A DNA stretch of 41,652 nucleotides from an uncultured Gammaproteobacteria bacterium (GTDB lineage Bacteria; Patescibacteriota; Patescibacteriia; Patescibacteriales; GWC2-42-12): positions 3,338 through 44,989 of the forward strand of contig CAYUHZ010000002.1 of assembly GCA_964444625.1 (NCBI GenBank), in the 5' to 3' direction. Shown in pieces: positions 32,483 through 38,738 of the stretch (the first letter of the stretch is position 1; the number at the start of each line of letters is the position of its first letter). The notes below the pieces were generated by a model. The model saw only the letters and a list, made by a program, of their open reading frames with translations, searched no databases and had not been told where the DNA came from. The position numbers and the translations under genes are program-made.

Positions 32483-33397
32483 TTATGCCCTTTTTCTCCC
32501 CCATTGCTCCCATAAAACAAGCAAAGGAGATGCCACGAAAACAGAACTGTATGTTCCGATAAAAATACCGAATGCCATGGCAAAAGCAAAAATCTTAATT
32601 GATTCCCCGCCAAAAAGAATGATAGCGCCAAGAGCCAGGATAACTGTCAAGGAAGTATTGATGGATCTAACTAAAGTCTGGTTGATGCTGGTGTTAATAG
32701 TGTTCTCAAAATCTTCGTTGCTGCGCGGCAAATTTTCTCTGATTCTGTCAAAAACAATGATTGTGTCATTGATTGAATAGCCCAGAACGGTTAAAATTGC
32801 GGCAACGAAGGGCGTGTTCACTTCTACGCCGAAAAATTTTCCCAATACCGCAAACAAACCAAGGGTAATGATGATATCATGAAACAAAGCGACCAAAGCG
32901 GAAATCCCGTACTTAAAAGAACTGACCGGCTTGGAAACTTGGCGAAAAACCCAGGCGATATAAATTAATATTCCCAGCAAAGCGAAAAATATGGCGTAAA
33001 CAGCCTTGCGCTTCAATTCCAAACCGATTGAGGGTCCTACTGAATCAAATCTCAATTCTTCAAGCTGATTTTCATTATTAATTTCGGAAGCTAGTTTGTT
33101 TAAGCTGGACATAATCGAATCCTTGATGGTCGGCTCGGTTTGTTGAAAGCGTAAAATTAAGGCGTTGGCATCTGACGGCTGTATAGACAAGCTATTTAAT
33201 TTCAGATCGGCTAGGCTCTTCTCCGCTTGCGCTACGGTTGGAACATGCTGACTAAACTTAACTTCAAGCAAACTTCCGCCGGTAAAATCAATTCCAAAAC
33301 GAAGACCCCAAACAGACAGGGCAACGATCGAACTAACGAACAAAACAGACGAAACCCCCAGCCAAATATTCCTTTGTTGAATGATTCTTAGGTTCAT
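32483..33397 (-). CDS. secF: Protein translocase subunit SecF
   Basis: 304 aa. GIDFTGGSLLEVKF, and an RND-like TM bundle with SINDTIVVFDRIRE. Confidence 0.95.
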   Translation of the reverse strand: MNLRIIQQRNIWLGVSSVLFVSSIVALSVWGLRFGIDFTGGSLLEVKFSQHVPTVAQAEKSLADLKLNSLSIQPSDANALILRFQQTEPTIKDSIMSSLNKLASEINNENQLEELRFDSVGPSIGLELKRKAVYAIFFALLGILIYIAWVFRQVSKPVSSFKYGISALVALFHDIIITLGLFAVLGKFFGVEVNTPFVAAILTVLGYSINDTIIVFDRIRENLPRSNEDFENTINTSINQTLVRSINTSLTVILALGAIILFGGESIKIFAFAMAFGIFIGTYSSVFVASPLLVLWEQWGRKRA

Positions 33398-33403
33398 ATG
33401 ATA

Positions 33404-35461
33404 TTATTTATTTTTGGCTACTCCGATCAGCCAATTTTTCTTTTCCAGCCAAGAGCTGGGTATAAGCTGCAAAAAATTCTTGGTTATAAAAATAGCGGAA
33501 AACATTGAAACCAGTACGCCGATAGTCAAGGTAATAGCAAAACCCTTAATCACGCTGGTGGAAAGTTGTATTAGAATAAAGCAGGTAATCAACGTGGAAA
33601 CATTGCTATCGCGAATTGACGGCCAAGCGCGCTTGAAACCCTCTTCCAAGGCCAAAGATAAAGGCTTGCCTCGCTGTATTTCTTCGCGTAATCTGGCAAA
33701 AATCAACACGTTGGCATCAACCGCCATACCGATAGACATGACAAATCCGGCTAATCCGGAAAGAGTTAATGTTATCGGCCACAACTTAAAAATTGCCAAA
33801 ACGATAATCGCATATGCCAATAAAGCAAAAACCGAAAGCAAGCCTGGCAGTCGATAGAAGAGAATCATAAACAAGGCCACCAACACAAATCCGATTAAGC
33901 CGGCCCGCAAGCTATTGTCTACTGACTGCTGTCCCAAACTAGCTCCGACCGTCTGTTGGCTGATAAGATTTATCGGCACTGGCAAAGCTCCGGCATTTAA
34001 ACGTTGCGCCAATAACTTTGCCTCCTCTACTGTGAATCTACCGGAAATAATCGCTTTGCCGTCTTTAATTTGCTCATTTACGGTGGGTATGCTAATCGGA
34101 TAATTATCCAAATAAATCGCCACCGGCTTGCCGATGTTTCTGCCGGTAATTTCCGAGAACATTTTCCCGCCTTCTTCGTCAAATTCCAAAGAAACAACTG
34201 GCGCTCCGTCATTAGGATCAAACTGGATAGTAGAAGTCTTTAAATTTTTACCGGTCAACTCGGTATTCTTCCAATCTGACTGCACGCCGGTAATGTCATC
34301 GGCGGTCTTGGTCTTGATCAGAATAACATTAACTTTATATTCAATTACCTGCCTTTCTCCCTGTTTGTGTATTAGATGATAACCAAACTGTGTTTCCACC
34401 ACATCAGAGATGGTGCCAACTTGCTGGCTGAAAACCGTTTTTTCAAAAGGTTCAACCATATCGCCGGCTCCGAACCAGCCCAATTCGCCATAATTATCCT
34501 GCGCTCCCGGTTCAGTGGAATTTTGCTTGACCAAATCTTTAAAATTATCGGTTGTAGCTTGAGCTTTAAGTTTGGTAATTTTTGCTAACGCCTCTTCCTT
34601 GGTTAAGCCGCTCTCGCATTTTTCCGCACTGGTAAAACAAACTAGCAAATGCGACGCTTTAGCTTCTTTTTCCTGCGCCTTGTCGTCAAAAGCGCTGGTC
34701 TTGATTCTTTGATCCGCTAATTTTAAAATAACAAAACCGGTTGAAATCCTATTTAAATCCTTGGTCGTTTCTCCTTTTTTAAGTTTAGCTGCTAAACCGA
34801 CATATTCGGGACTGGTTTTTTCAGTAAGCCAGCCCAAGTCGCCGCCATTAGCCTTACCGGAATCATCTTCACTGTATTCTTTGGCCAGAGCCGAGAAATC
34901 ACCTCCGGAAATCAATTTTCCCAGAACATTGGTGGCTTTTGCTTCGGCGTTTTCGTTATATTCATCAAGCTGTTTTTGCTCGTCGGCTGTCAACTCGCGT
35001 TTTTCAGTATTCTGTTCTTTGAATTCCAAAAGCGGAGTTTCGCCAATCATTTTGATGGCTTGATTGACATCTTTGATTCCCGCCAGCTCAACAATCACTT
35101 GAAAATCATCTCCGCTGCGATTAGTTTGGACTACCGGCTCGCTCACGCCAAAAACATTGACCCGACGCTCAATCACGTCGCGTACGCCCTCTACGGCGCT
35201 GGCGCGGTCGGCTGATTTAATAACGGAAACATCGGCTTGATAAACCAAGTGGGTTCCGCCCGACAGATCAAGGCCGAGTCGGAAAGGAATTTCTTTGACT
35301 TTCGGCAACAGCAACTCGTATTTGTTTACGACCTTGTTGTAATATTGGCCCGCGTCAACAAATAAGCCTACAACAGCTAAAATAATAATAAATACAAACA
35401 TCCACCAGACCCTACCTCTGGTTCCTGGCTGAAAAATTTTTTGAAAAATATTGTCTGACAT
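33404..35461 (-). CDS. secD: Protein translocase subunit SecD carrying parvulin-type PPIase module(s) inside its periplasmic P1 domain
   Basis: 685 aa. SecD blocks: LGLDLSGGTHLVYQ, GETPLLEF, KPVAIYLDNYPISIPTV, EEAKLLAQRLNAGALP, and GMAVDANVLIFARLREE. An inserted segment ASHLLVCF...GELGWFGAGDMVEPFEKTVF..VGTISDVVETQFGYHLIHK matches the parvulin signature. Confidence 0.93.
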   Translation of the reverse strand: MSDNIFQKIFQPGTRGRVWWMFVFIIILAVVGLFVDAGQYYNKVVNKYELLLPKVKEIPFRLGLDLSGGTHLVYQADVSVIKSADRASAVEGVRDVIERRVNVFGVSEPVVQTNRSGDDFQVIVELAGIKDVNQAIKMIGETPLLEFKEQNTEKRELTADEQKQLDEYNENAEAKATNVLGKLISGGDFSALAKEYSEDDSGKANGGDLGWLTEKTSPEYVGLAAKLKKGETTKDLNRISTGFVILKLADQRIKTSAFDDKAQEKEAKASHLLVCFTSAEKCESGLTKEEALAKITKLKAQATTDNFKDLVKQNSTEPGAQDNYGELGWFGAGDMVEPFEKTVFSQQVGTISDVVETQFGYHLIHKQGERQVIEYKVNVILIKTKTADDITGVQSDWKNTELTGKNLKTSTIQFDPNDGAPVVSLEFDEEGGKMFSEITGRNIGKPVAIYLDNYPISIPTVNEQIKDGKAIISGRFTVEEAKLLAQRLNAGALPVPINLISQQTVGASLGQQSVDNSLRAGLIGFVLVALFMILFYRLPGLLSVFALLAYAIIVLAIFKLWPITLTLSGLAGFVMSIGMAVDANVLIFARLREEIQRGKPLSLALEEGFKRAWPSIRDSNVSTLITCFILIQLSTSVIKGFAITLTIGVLVSMFSAIFITKNFLQLIPSSWLEKKNWLIGVAKNK

Positions 35462-35773: not shown

Positions 35774-35814
35774 CTACTCCCCGCAAAACTTCTTGTATTT
35801 TTTTCCGCTGCCAC
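35774..35814 (-). repeat. Direct repeat copy of the last 41 nt of secA (zinc-finger tail plus stop), lying in the secA 3' UTR
   Basis: 35774-35814 versus 35865-35905 gives 37/41 identity, including a 34-nt block with one mismatch. The copy reads GSGKKYKKFCGE-stop, against secA GSGKKYKKCCGK-stop. Confidence 0.9.
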
Positions 35815-35864: not shown

Positions 35865-38738
35865 TTACTTTCCGCAACACTTCTTGTATTTTTTTCCGCT
35901 GCCACACGGGCAAGAGTCATTGCGGCCGATCTTATTCCCTTCTTTGTCTTTGGCTTTTTCTTTTACCAAATCAACGGTTTTCGGCTGATTGGAAGATGGC
36001 TCTTGCTTGAAAGCCGAAAATGACCCGCTTTGCTTGTCCATTTCCTTGGCCGGAGCGGAAAGCACTTGCTGTCGATCAAGCAGGCTGGGCGAGAAAAACT
36101 GTCCTGCTTCCGCAATTTTAAAAATGCTATAAGCCACTTCTTTCTGAATGAGGTTGTTCAATTCGCTGTACAACCGATAAGCTTCGCGCTTGTATTCCAC
36201 CAAGGGATCACGCTGGCCGTAACCGCGCAAACCAATGCCGCGCCGCATATAATCAATCGCTTCCAAGTGCTCAACCCACAGCAAATCAATCGATCTTAGC
36301 AAAACCGATTTTTCCACCTGTTGCCAGTCCAAGCCGACTTGACTGATCTTATCTTTGATCTGGCGATAATAATCATCGGCTAGAGCGGAAAATTTCTCAA
36401 TCATGGCGGTTCTCGCCATCACTTTATCCAATTTGCCCGAATCACCGGTCAGATCGGCAATATCTGCTTTGACTTGCTCGTTAACGGGGAAAATAGTAGA
36501 CATGACTTGATTGATTTCTGCGATATTCCACTCTCTCATTGATTCTGCCGCTGTATGAAAACTGACAACCTGTTCTATCTCGTCTTCCACCATTTCTAAA
36601 ATTATTTTTGATAAAGTTTTTTTGTCCTGATTTTCCGTGTTTTCGCCAGCGGAAGATTCATTGTCAAATCGATCTTCCATTGGCGACTCCAACCTCTCTG
36701 ACAGCTCCAAGATCTCTCTGCGCTTTTTATAGATGCCTTCGCGATGCTTATTCAAAACATCATCATATTCCAACAAGTGTTTGCGAGTATCAAAATTGTT
36801 GCCTTCAACCTTCTTTTGGGCTGATTCAATTGACTTGGAGATTATATTGTTTTCAATCGGCAAGTCTTCGGGCACGCGCAACGTCGCCATGATATTCTTC
36901 ATCCGGTCACCGCCGAAAATTCTCATCAAATCATCCTCCATGGAGACATAAAACTGGCTTGATCCGGGATCGCCCTGGCGCCCGGCGCGCCCGCGCAACT
37001 GATTGTCAATTCGCCTGGATTCATGGCGTTCGGTACCGATAATATGCAATCCGCCGCAAGCAAGCACCCGGGCCCGTTCCTCCGCCCACGCTTCGTGTTC
37101 AGGCGAATCTTTGGCCGGCTCTCTGCCGCCTAACATAATATCAACGCCGCGTCCAGCCATATTGGTCGCAATCGTCACTGCGCCAACCTTGCCGGCATCG
37201 GCAATGATCTGTGCTTCTTTCTCGTGGTGTTTGGCGTTGAGTATCTGGGGCTGAACTCCTTCGCGCTCCAGCATTTCCCCCAGCAATTCGTTTTTTTCAA
37301 TTGATATCGTGCCAACCAGCACCGGCTGTCCGGTCTGATGAAGGCGTTTGATTTCCTGGATTACCGCCTTGAACTTCCCCATTTCACTGCTGTAAATCAA
37401 GTCATTGAGATCAAGCCTGGACATTGGCCGGTTAGTGGGAATTATAATGGTATCCAAATTATAGATCTTATAAAATTCTTCCGCTTCGGTCACGGCCGTA
37501 CCGGTCATGCCGGCCAGCTTGCGGTACATGCGAAAATAATTCTGAAAAGTAACGGTGGCCATGGTCTGTGATTCGCGTTGGATCTTGACGCCCTCTTTGG
37601 CTTCAATCGCCTGATGCAATCCTTCGCTATAACGCCGTCCATGCATCAGACGTCCGGTAAATTCATCCACGATGATCACTTCGCCTTCCTTAACCACATA
37701 GTCACGGTCGCGCTTGAATAAAGTCATAGCCTTCAAGGCCTGTTCAATATGATGAACATCTCTCATGCCCCCTTCGGCATAGATATTTTTGACTCCCATC
37801 ATTTTTTCCAGCTTGGCGATTCCCGACTCGGTCAAAGTCGAGGCGCGCATCTTCTCGTCAATATTATAATCCTCATTCTCCGCTAGGTGTTCTACCAATT
37901 TGGAAAAAGTGTAATATTTATCGGTTGATTCTTCGGCAGCGGAACTGATAATCAAAGGCGTTCTAGCTTCGTCAATCAAGATTGAATCAACTTCATCCAC
38001 GATGGCGAAATTTAGCTCGCGCTGAACCATTTTGGCCAAATCAGGCGACATATTGTCGCGCAGGTAATCAAAACCGTATTCGTTATTCGTGCCATAGGTA
38101 ATATCTGCTTGGTACGCTTCTTTTCGGGAAACCTGCCTCATAATGTCTCCGGTTTGAGATTTAGAAATTTCTTCATTGGAATTTGAAAATTGAAAATTAT
38201 TTGCATTACCCAATAAATGAGCGGCTTCGTGGGTAATGCACCCGACAGATAATCCAAGAAAGCTATAAATCATTCCCATCCACTCTGCATCACGCCTGGC
38301 CAAATAGTCGTTGACCGTGATCACATGAACGCCGCGGCCGGTCAAGGCGTTAAGATAGACAGCCAAGGTGGCGACCAGTGTCTTGCCTTCTCCGGTGCGC
38401 ATTTCAGCGATCTGTCCGCGATGCAGCACTATTCCACCGATCAGCTGGACATCATAGTGGCGCTGGCCGAGCACGCGCTTGGCTGCCTCGCGCACAATCG
38501 CAAAAGCCTCGGGCAAAATTTCCTCTAATGCCGATTTTATCATTTCATCTTTGTTTTCTTCCTGGCTGGCTTCTATAGCCTTAAAAACGCCTTGATATTC
38601 AAAGGTTTTGGAGCGCAGATCCTCATTGCTTAAGTTGGAAAACATCTCTTCCAAACCGTTAATTTTCTCAACTAGCAAACTGAGTTCGCTTATTGTCTTT
38701 TCGTTTGGATCGCCGAAAATTTTACTAAAAAATCCCAT
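35865..38738 (-). CDS. secA: Preprotein translocase ATPase SecA
   Basis: 957 aa. MRTGEGKTLVA Walker A, DEVDSILIDEARTPLIIS, TNMAGRGVDI, and C-terminal CPCGSGKKYKKCCGK zinc motif. Confidence 0.98.
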   Translation of the reverse strand: MGFFSKIFGDPNEKTISELSLLVEKINGLEEMFSNLSNEDLRSKTFEYQGVFKAIEASQEENKDEMIKSALEEILPEAFAIVREAAKRVLGQRHYDVQLIGGIVLHRGQIAEMRTGEGKTLVATLAVYLNALTGRGVHVITVNDYLARRDAEWMGMIYSFLGLSVGCITHEAAHLLGNANNFQFSNSNEEISKSQTGDIMRQVSRKEAYQADITYGTNNEYGFDYLRDNMSPDLAKMVQRELNFAIVDEVDSILIDEARTPLIISSAAEESTDKYYTFSKLVEHLAENEDYNIDEKMRASTLTESGIAKLEKMMGVKNIYAEGGMRDVHHIEQALKAMTLFKRDRDYVVKEGEVIIVDEFTGRLMHGRRYSEGLHQAIEAKEGVKIQRESQTMATVTFQNYFRMYRKLAGMTGTAVTEAEEFYKIYNLDTIIIPTNRPMSRLDLNDLIYSSEMGKFKAVIQEIKRLHQTGQPVLVGTISIEKNELLGEMLEREGVQPQILNAKHHEKEAQIIADAGKVGAVTIATNMAGRGVDIMLGGREPAKDSPEHEAWAEERARVLACGGLHIIGTERHESRRIDNQLRGRAGRQGDPGSSQFYVSMEDDLMRIFGGDRMKNIMATLRVPEDLPIENNIISKSIESAQKKVEGNNFDTRKHLLEYDDVLNKHREGIYKKRREILELSERLESPMEDRFDNESSAGENTENQDKKTLSKIILEMVEDEIEQVVSFHTAAESMREWNIAEINQVMSTIFPVNEQVKADIADLTGDSGKLDKVMARTAMIEKFSALADDYYRQIKDKISQVGLDWQQVEKSVLLRSIDLLWVEHLEAIDYMRRGIGLRGYGQRDPLVEYKREAYRLYSELNNLIQKEVAYSIFKIAEAGQFFSPSLLDRQQVLSAPAKEMDKQSGSFSAFKQEPSSNQPKTVDLVKEKAKDKEGNKIGRNDSCPCGSGKKYKKCCGK

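Follow-up and report, generated by a model that had tools for sequence, protein, structure and literature searches.

A SecD protein of Patescibacteria with two parvulin modules inserted in its P1 domain

We analyzed a 41,652-nt stretch of contig CAYUHZ010000002.1 (positions 3,338 to 44,989, assembly GCA_964444625.1; hereafter the window) from a genome that GTDB places in Patescibacteriota, and found that its secD gene encodes a SecD protein whose extracytoplasmic P1 domain carries two parvulin-type peptidyl-prolyl isomerase (PPIase) modules. The first module (D1) is degenerate, and the second (D2) retains an active site that, judged from alignments, is under strong constraint. The parts of the gene product are as follows, with position 1 being the first nucleotide of the window.

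33404..35461, minus strand: secD, 685 aa with the parvulin insert; a single unbroken open reading frame (ORF), identified by TIGR01129 and its Pfam architecture
35351..35413, minus strand: first transmembrane (TM) helix, TM1, aa ~17–37; AlphaFold2 (AF2) helix 14–36; canonical SecD topology taken from the matched Thermus SecDF structures
35009..35191, minus strand: N-terminal part of the P1 base, SecD_1st, aa 91–151; Pfam and alignment to 3AQP
34703..34987, minus strand: D1, degenerate parvulin, aa ~159–253; Rotamase 56.4 bits, profile positions 10–96
34349..34690, minus strand: D2, complete parvulin, aa ~258–371; Rotamase_3 88.0 bits, profile positions 7–111
34310..34345, minus strand: trailing strand, aa 373–384, IEYKVNVILIKT; AF2 strand 373–383; candidate displaced first strand of D1
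33971..34273, minus strand: P1 head core, aa 397–497, from the invariant W397; SecDF_P1_head aa 398–495; Thermus SecDF residues 159–260
33452..33970, minus strand: SecD transmembrane domain, aa 498–670; Pfam SecD_SecF_C and alignment to 3AQP

The protein scored 378.9 bits against the secD equivalog model TIGR01129 (cutoff 244.4 bits), with a match running from aa 62 to 663. Along the whole chain, Pfam placed Sec_GG, SecD_1st (aa 91–151), two Rotamase/Rotamase_3 stretches (E = 1.5e-38 and 3.4e-34), SecDF_P1_head (aa 398–495) and SecD_SecF_C (aa 498–666), in that order. Pfam, alignments to the SecDF structures 3AQP and 5XAN, and Foldseek all recovered the layout of SecD, namely an N-terminal TM helix, the P1 base and head, and a C-terminal TM bundle. 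Because positively charged residues stand before TM1, the whole of P1, including the parvulins, lies outside the cytoplasm. Asp582 aligns with Asp340 of Thermus thermophilus SecDF in the 3AQP alignment and is invariant in 45 homologues. Asp340 is the conserved TM aspartate that published work on Thermus found to be needed for proton coupling. In the database gene call for the protein (P0001, 665 aa), the first 20 codons from the ATG at 35461 are left out (window positions 35402–35461). We favor the ATG at 35461 because the longer N-terminus (MSDNIFQKIF.P..RG.VW) is conserved in homologues, with M1, N4, P12, R15 and W19 each at least 90% conserved in the 45-sequence homologue alignment; the 685-residue ORF thus probably has the correct start.

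The insertion site was located by alignment to Thermus SecDF (3AQP). SecD aa 57–149 align to Thermus residues 30–117 and aa 401–679 to residues 159–438, so that about 250 residues (aa 150–400) stand in place of a 41-residue Thermus segment (118–158). The site is a loop of the mobile head, between the strand LLEFKE and W397KNTELTG. SecD_1st ends in the strand ETPLLEFKE (aa 141–149), which we read as the first strand of the head, and E141–E149 are conserved in 77–80 of 80 species. These and all later species counts come from a scan of one genome per GTDB species, in which at least 401 genomes of a Falkowbacteria-like clade encode a relative of the insert; they refer to the best 80 of the at least 401 matched genomes. 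The initial annotation had placed the parvulin region at 34346–35008 (aa 152–372) and estimated the insert at about 215 residues. Its span does cover both parvulins, but it omits aa 373–396 (nt 34274–34345), a conserved strand and linker with which the whole insert comes to about 247 residues.

Both halves of the insert, when scanned separately, scored well above the Pfam thresholds for parvulin models (about 22 bits; gathering score for Rotamase 21.7). The proposal that this SecD, itself above the TIGR01129 cutoff, holds two parvulin modules in its periplasmic P1 domain is thereby borne out, as is the description of the second module as near-canonical (Rotamase_3, 88 bits) and of the first as degenerate (Rotamase, 56.4 bits). 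The best NCBIfam matches of D2 were PrsA models. For D1, the best match was the PpiD model NF008054 (57.4 bits), and the PpiD parvulin structure 2KGJ in PDB matched aa 172–251.

We mapped the active site of D2 by alignment to human Pin1 and Escherichia coli Par10 and obtained the following correspondences.

D2 His271: Pin1 H59
D2 Glu317: Pin1 C113; Cys41 in Par10 (numbering with Met1)
D2 Leu327, Met335 and Phe339 (proline pocket): Pin1 L122, M130 and F134
D2 His362: Pin1 H157
D2 Cys275, Glu280 and Lys281: Pin1 K63, R68 and R69

The two histidines, residue 317 and the Leu/Met/Phe pocket are all present in D2. Because the basic triad of Pin1 is replaced, D2 is not a phospho-specific parvulin. 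Across the 80 species, H271, H362, L327, M335, F339, F359, C275 and C282 are each conserved without exception. An acidic residue occupies position 317 in 73 of them (70 Glu and three Asp) and Gly in the other seven, while the mean pairwise identity of D2 is only 62%. Both histidines are also invariant, and residue 317 acidic, in 12 of 12 divergent inserts that are 30–56% identical to the window insert (most 38–56%, the lowest 30%). An active site that stays invariant while the remainder of the domain drifts to 62% identity is the pattern expected of a working catalytic or ligand site and not of a spacer, and these alignments indicate that the D2 active site is under strong purifying selection. 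Glu in place of Asp or Cys at position 317 is a conservative departure; the equivalent residue of PrsA is presumably Asp. Cys275 and Cys282 (nt 34616–34639) are separated by seven positions within the loop that connects strand 1 to helix 1, the counterpart of the Pin1 phosphate-binding loop. Across the active site they may act as a disulfide staple or a redox switch. The pair also occurs in free-standing paralogues, but is missing from several distant CPR (Candidate Phyla Radiation) lineages that keep the insert.

D1 has the lowest mean pairwise identity of all domains (0.50 in the 80 species). Both active-site histidines are gone from it in the window protein, and only the Asp (D199) is retained; the second histidine is replaced by V244 here and, in 66 of the 80 species, by Glu. 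The canonical His-bearing first strand is absent at the N-terminus of D1, where the Pfam match begins at profile position 10. The sheet of a parvulin needs its central first strand in order to form, so D1 must borrow one.

The candidate is the strand that trails D2. In most relatives it reads xSHI[FL]IKT, the parvulin first-strand motif; position 379 is His in 58 of the 80 species, and the window protein has N378-V379 where relatives have S-H. When the trailing strand was joined before D1 in silico, the Pfam Rotamase match extended to profile position 1, with a gain over the native LLEFKE N-terminus of 8–9 bits in a homologue and 2–7 bits in the window protein. The AF2 model gives the strand a predicted local distance difference test score (pLDDT) of about 85–90, like that of the parvulins, and LLEFKE a score of 64. 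Three single-parvulin variants (P0308, P0312, P0314) keep the order D1, a linker of about 20 residues replacing D2, trailing strand and head. The free-standing paralogues, which join a head to a parvulin, have a strand AKFE[IV]K about 10 residues before the head core and no trailing strand, and LLEFKE is therefore assigned to the head. Taken with the model, these comparisons suggest that D1 is probably circularly permuted and completed by aa 373–384, with D2 nested inside it. The proposed order would be head strand 1, D1 from helix 1 to strand 4, a complete D2, D1 strand 1 and the head core. Such an order would make the two termini of the insert neighbors, a condition for placing it in a hairpin loop, and we infer that it is the product expected if a segment was cut out of a tandem-parvulin array, shifted by one strand. 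The more degenerate repeat recognized in the initial annotation is a parvulin, but the two modules probably do not form a simple tandem.

The AF2 model, built from a 45-sequence alignment, has a mean pLDDT of 75.6 and a predicted template modeling score (pTM) of 0.37. Its confident block spans about aa 161–390 (pLDDT 81–92 by 10-residue block), and the SecD base and head range from 59 to 80. In Foldseek searches of the PDB, SecDF structures ranked at the top, and SurA and the PPIase domain of Staphylococcus aureus PrsA were also matched. The isolated Thermus P1 domain (3AQO) gave a TM-score of 0.66, normalized by target; because this alignment spans 439 columns for a 221-residue target, the insert appears in it as one gap of about 218 columns. 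The S. aureus PrsA PPIase (2JZV) gave a TM-score of 0.82, likewise normalized by target, a match that we attribute to D2. Among the PDB sequence and Foldseek matches, no solved SecD or SecDF contained a parvulin.

The fusion recurs widely. All matches in the best 80 of the at least 401 genomes span the whole insert at 50–68% identity, some of them on contigs of up to 1.27 Mb. At the level of 90%-identity clusters from NCBI, JGI, ENA and Logan assemblies, 120 of the 120 best database relatives combine SecD with Rotamase and are 61–77% identical to the window protein; in the source records they are SecD or sometimes 'peptidylprolyl isomerase' by name, and Falkowbacteria or Patescibacteria by origin. 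Roughly 25–30 clusters among the top 150 matches to 50%-identity representatives have the SecD-parvulin architecture, and the others are ordinary multi-parvulin proteins without SecD. The 120 best relatives of the most divergent member, P0269, all have one or more parvulins between base and head. They include 32 single-chain SecDF proteins of 1002–1120 aa, some labeled Abawacabacteria, Peregrinibacteria or Gracilibacteria, as well as SecD proteins labeled Magasanik-, Kuenen- and Buchananbacteria. An Abawacabacteria SecDF is collinear with the window protein at 43% identity through D1, D2 and the trailing strand. This survey of SecD homologues places the fusion in several CPR lineages, and the distribution indicates that the architecture is old and widespread across them and no rarity of one reduced organism; its simplest reading would be one insertion early in the CPR radiation. 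Labels outside the CPR (Bipolaricaulota, Nitrospirota, Actinobacteria, 'uncultured Gammaproteobacteria') are probably binning or labeling errors; a full-length comparison of the 'Bipolaricaulota' protein with a Magasanikbacteria SecD gives 55% identity. The nearest tandem-parvulin relatives of D2 are almost all unnamed, and with one of them in Rubricoccaceae the set says little about CPR.

The probability that a mis-assembly or mis-called ORF joined a parvulin gene to secD is negligible. The sole hint of it is that the database call P0001 starts 20 codons later. Against it, the gene is one uninterrupted ORF, independent assemblies show the same contiguous module order, which recurs across more than 120 90%-identity clusters from all four sources, the whole insert is present in all of the best 80 species genomes, including those on the long contigs, and the deep-branching SecDF fusions have it too.

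Two sets of size variants accompany the main form. SecD proteins of about 590 aa (P0308, P0312, P0314) have only a degenerate D1-type parvulin and the trailing strand, and others of about 780–795 aa (P0334, P0369, P0385, P0394, P0412, P0413) have an extra 130–150 residues, with no family match, between D2 and the head. Naming is inconsistent throughout: some NCBI records call a full-length SecD-parvulin protein 'peptidylprolyl isomerase', some single-chain SecDF proteins are called 'SecF', and many 'binchicken' metagenome-assembled genomes (MAGs) with a Patescibacteria-type secD-parvulin gene are titled 'uncultured Gammaproteobacteria bacterium'.

Comparison with characterized systems sets the fusion apart from each of them. 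T. thermophilus and Deinococcus radiodurans SecDF (3AQP, 5YHF, 5XAN) and E. coli SecD share its TM helix, P1 base and head, TM bundle, essential Asp and SecF partner, and SecDF proteins are its best PDB matches in both sequence and fold. At the insertion site, however, Thermus has its 41-residue segment where the two parvulins and their roughly 250 residues stand here, and in E. coli SecD the head-core alignment resumes at chain residue 323, from which we infer a long non-parvulin segment. D2 is closest to the parvulin domain of PrsA (Bacillus, Staphylococcus, Listeria), and both are extracytoplasmic, at the membrane and expected to act on Sec substrates. Unlike PrsA, the window protein has neither a lipobox nor the N/C chaperone domain, and its parvulins are flanked by SecD P1; it scored 83.7 and 80.6 bits against PrsA models with cutoffs of 343 and 361 (NF002827, NF002846), through the parvulin part only.

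PpiD, the best family match of D1, works with YfgM at SecYEG in E. coli and contacts the SecD P1 head (PMC7793623). It stands alone as a protein, anchored by its own TM segment and equipped with large chaperone domains, whereas in the window protein the parvulin belongs covalently to the SecD chain and is joined by a second, apparently active one; against the PpiD model NF008054, the window protein reached 73.4 bits (cutoff 493), through the parvulin segment only (profile positions 256–359 of 626). The parvulin domain of PpiD is catalytically inactive, as D1 appears to be. SurA, too, has a degenerate parvulin followed by an intact one (P1 inactive, P2 active), and SurA 1M5Y is the best two-domain PDB match, over SecD aa 161–372. 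It differs in being a soluble periplasmic protein of diderms whose parvulins are inserted in an N/C chaperone core, and only the two parvulin domains matched its model NF008038 (66.2 bits, cutoff 394). The Mdp444/436/489 dome of Mycoplasma pneumoniae offers a parallel from another genome-reduced organism, with PPIC foldases physically integrated with SecDF/SecYEG and catalytic residues kept in only one of the PPIC domains (bioRxiv 10.1101/2025.04.25.650208; 10.1101/2024.09.05.611430). The dome is non-covalent and built of large PrsA-like lipoproteins in Mycoplasmatota, in contrast to the domain insertion in SecD of Patescibacteria. We rejected NF009585 (SecDF, 993 positions, aligned from aa 248) as a curated parvulin-bearing family: because D2 alone gave no match to it, the overlap is a loose alignment across that family's own insert.

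We consider it fairly probable that the insert is a covalent foldase or chaperone, in which D1 would add binding surface and D2 would act as an active prolyl isomerase on the captured chain. The P1 head would catch a chain leaving SecYEG, and proton flow would swing the head from the membrane. Head capture and a proton-driven swing are established for Thermus, Deinococcus and E. coli SecDF. The parvulins would travel with the head, D1 widening the surface offered to the unfolded chain and D2 performing prolyl cis/trans isomerization on the captured segment, so that pulling, holding and a first folding step would take place on a single polypeptide. Such coupling of translocation to folding by the fusion is plausible. 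Elsewhere, the job is done by separate parvulins that contact SecDF/SecYEG, namely PpiD, SurA, PrsA and the Mycoplasma Mdp dome. A crosslink joins PpiD to Asp359 of the P1 head of E. coli SecD, and the cooperation of PpiD with SecD is non-redundant (PMC7793623). AlphaFold models place the SurA parvulin domains P1 and P2 on the SecDF P1 head (PMC9987972), and in Mycoplasma, PrsA-like PPIC lipoproteins form a dome on SecDF/SecYEG (bioRxiv 10.1101/2025.04.25.650208; 10.1101/2024.09.05.611430).

Several points weigh against an active foldase. Residue 317 is Glu where characterized parvulins have Asp or Cys, and is Gly in seven of the 80 species. The whole-chain pTM of the AF2 model is just 0.37. 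At least one related MAG encodes a separate, membrane-anchored head-and-parvulin protein beside the fusion. For PrsA and SurA, moreover, PPIase activity is dispensable in vivo and chaperone function dominates, so a conserved active site may mean peptide binding and not catalysis. The insert could accordingly be a non-catalytic holdase or spacer that enlarges or repositions the substrate surface of the P1 head, with isomerization irrelevant, much like the inactive parvulin domains of PpiD and SurA P1. We regard this as rather unlikely, though several observations favor it: D1 lacks both histidines, is the least conserved module and has the PpiD parvulin as its best family match; the lineages of P0308, P0312 and P0314 keep a degenerate D1-type domain and no D2; D1 of the Abawacabacteria SecDF is no longer recognized by Pfam; and the chaperone function of PrsA and SurA is independent of PPIase activity. 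What speaks against it is D2: all 80 species keep its canonical active-site and proline-pocket residues, with the domain otherwise down to 62% identity.

Much less probable, in our estimate, is a docking or regulatory module, which would either have a fixed binding partner (a cell-surface assembly, SecYEG/YidC or a proline-containing stretch of SecD/SecF) or gate the head, possibly through a Cys275–Cys282 redox switch. The Cys pair lies in the loop covering the active site in all 80 species and recurs in the free-standing paralogues, and CPR envelopes are unusual, all of which would suit such a role. The absence of the pair from several distant lineages with the insert argues against it, however, as do the housekeeping neighbors (secA, secF, mreBC, a PBP2-type transpeptidase and an M50 protease), which suggest no partner, and the general PrsA-type foldases that are the closest sequence relatives of D2.

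The free-standing paralogues form a small family of proteins about 280 aa long. They are anchored by an N-terminal TM segment and combine a SecDF_P1_head with a D2-like parvulin that has the same CxxxxxxC loop. Proteins P0272, P0273, P0148, P0149, P0152 and P0163 belong to this type, which was found at these loci:

L081, 7961–8806: free-standing head and parvulin protein
L083, 8001–8846: free-standing head and parvulin protein
L084, 603–1448: free-standing head and parvulin protein

A resolvase, a restriction-modification cluster, an integrase and a Fic gene lie within about 6 kb of the paralogue in the three loci, and in L083 and L084 Zn-ribbon, TPR and trypsin-like genes come after it. P0272 (contig CAZGKM010000001.1) shares one MAG (CAZGKM01) with the SecD-parvulin gene L005 (contig CAZGKM010000008.1), and the fusion is therefore not necessarily the sole membrane-proximal parvulin of its cell. 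The earlier idea that the fusion reflects genome economy, replacing a separate foldase, is weakened by these paralogues. A further protein, P0246 (604 aa, from a Logan contig of 5.5 kb), is a probable lipoprotein with an LTGC lipobox, a weak P1-base match, two strong parvulins and a SecDF_P1_head; the transmembrane domain of SecD is missing. The protein resembles a detached 'P1 with parvulins', laid out by its domain order in a way analogous to PrsA. As a tentative and somewhat doubtful extension, much of the CPR may possess an ancient fused 'translocation-folding motor', in which the swing of P1 would be mechanically coupled to the nested chaperone/PPIase unit and which would also exist as a detachable part, either as TM-anchored head-and-parvulin proteins or as a lipoprotein with a P1-head-like domain and parvulins.

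The genes on either side of secD are as follows.

32483..33397, minus strand: secF, 304 aa, partner subunit, directly downstream of secD; Pfam SecD_SecF_C 203 bits and Sec_GG
35865..38738, minus strand: secA, 957 aa, upstream of secD; full-length by its translation, with the C-terminal zinc-finger tail CPCGSGKKYKKCCGK

The IND and TLVRS motifs of the window SecF, read from its translation, are presumably the counterparts of Thermus D637 and R671, and we take the ORF at 35865–38738 to be SecA from its translation. The wider surroundings are housekeeping genes: an M50/PDZ protease, a ribosome hibernation factor, a class II tRNA synthetase, mreB, mreC and a PBP2-type transpeptidase. Hidden Markov models of D1, D2 and the head, run across the 41.6-kb window, matched secD alone and revealed no second parvulin gene. 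The 400-bp spacer between secA and secD contained short ORFs only, with no recognizable motif of an arrest peptide of the VemP or SecM type upstream of secD. A 40-nt direct repeat (93% identical) lies at 35775–35814 and 35866–35905, by which the 3′ end of secA, encoding the zinc-finger tail GSGKKYKKCCGK, has a second copy 91 nt downstream, inside the spacer; this copy would read GSGKKYKKFCGE followed by a stop within a short ORF.

The sequences and their Pfam matches have been public, with automatic annotation, since the GW2011 groundwater genomes. In line with the suspicion that no SecD-PPIase chimera had been described, full-text literature searches, whose coverage leaves out most subscription-journal papers, found none. 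As far as known, the architecture is thus visible in databases and apparently uninterpreted. None of its components is new, and the coupling of translocation to folding is a current concept. Prior evidence for a hand-over from the SecDF motor to extracytoplasmic chaperones is indirect, consisting of PpiD crosslinks, AlphaFold models of SurA and in-cell maps of Mycoplasma. A conserved covalent fusion of parvulins to the moving head is an independent evolutionary argument that hand-over takes place at the P1 head, and it offers a compact one-polypeptide system for structural and biochemical tests of it. If the tentative motor reading is true, the fusion would be a natural 'Rosetta stone', indicating that across bacteria the SecDF head is a direct site of action of PpiD, SurA and PrsA. 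The finding also bears on the annotation of SecD and SecDF, and on how surface and secreted proteins are folded in minimal-genome CPR bacteria.

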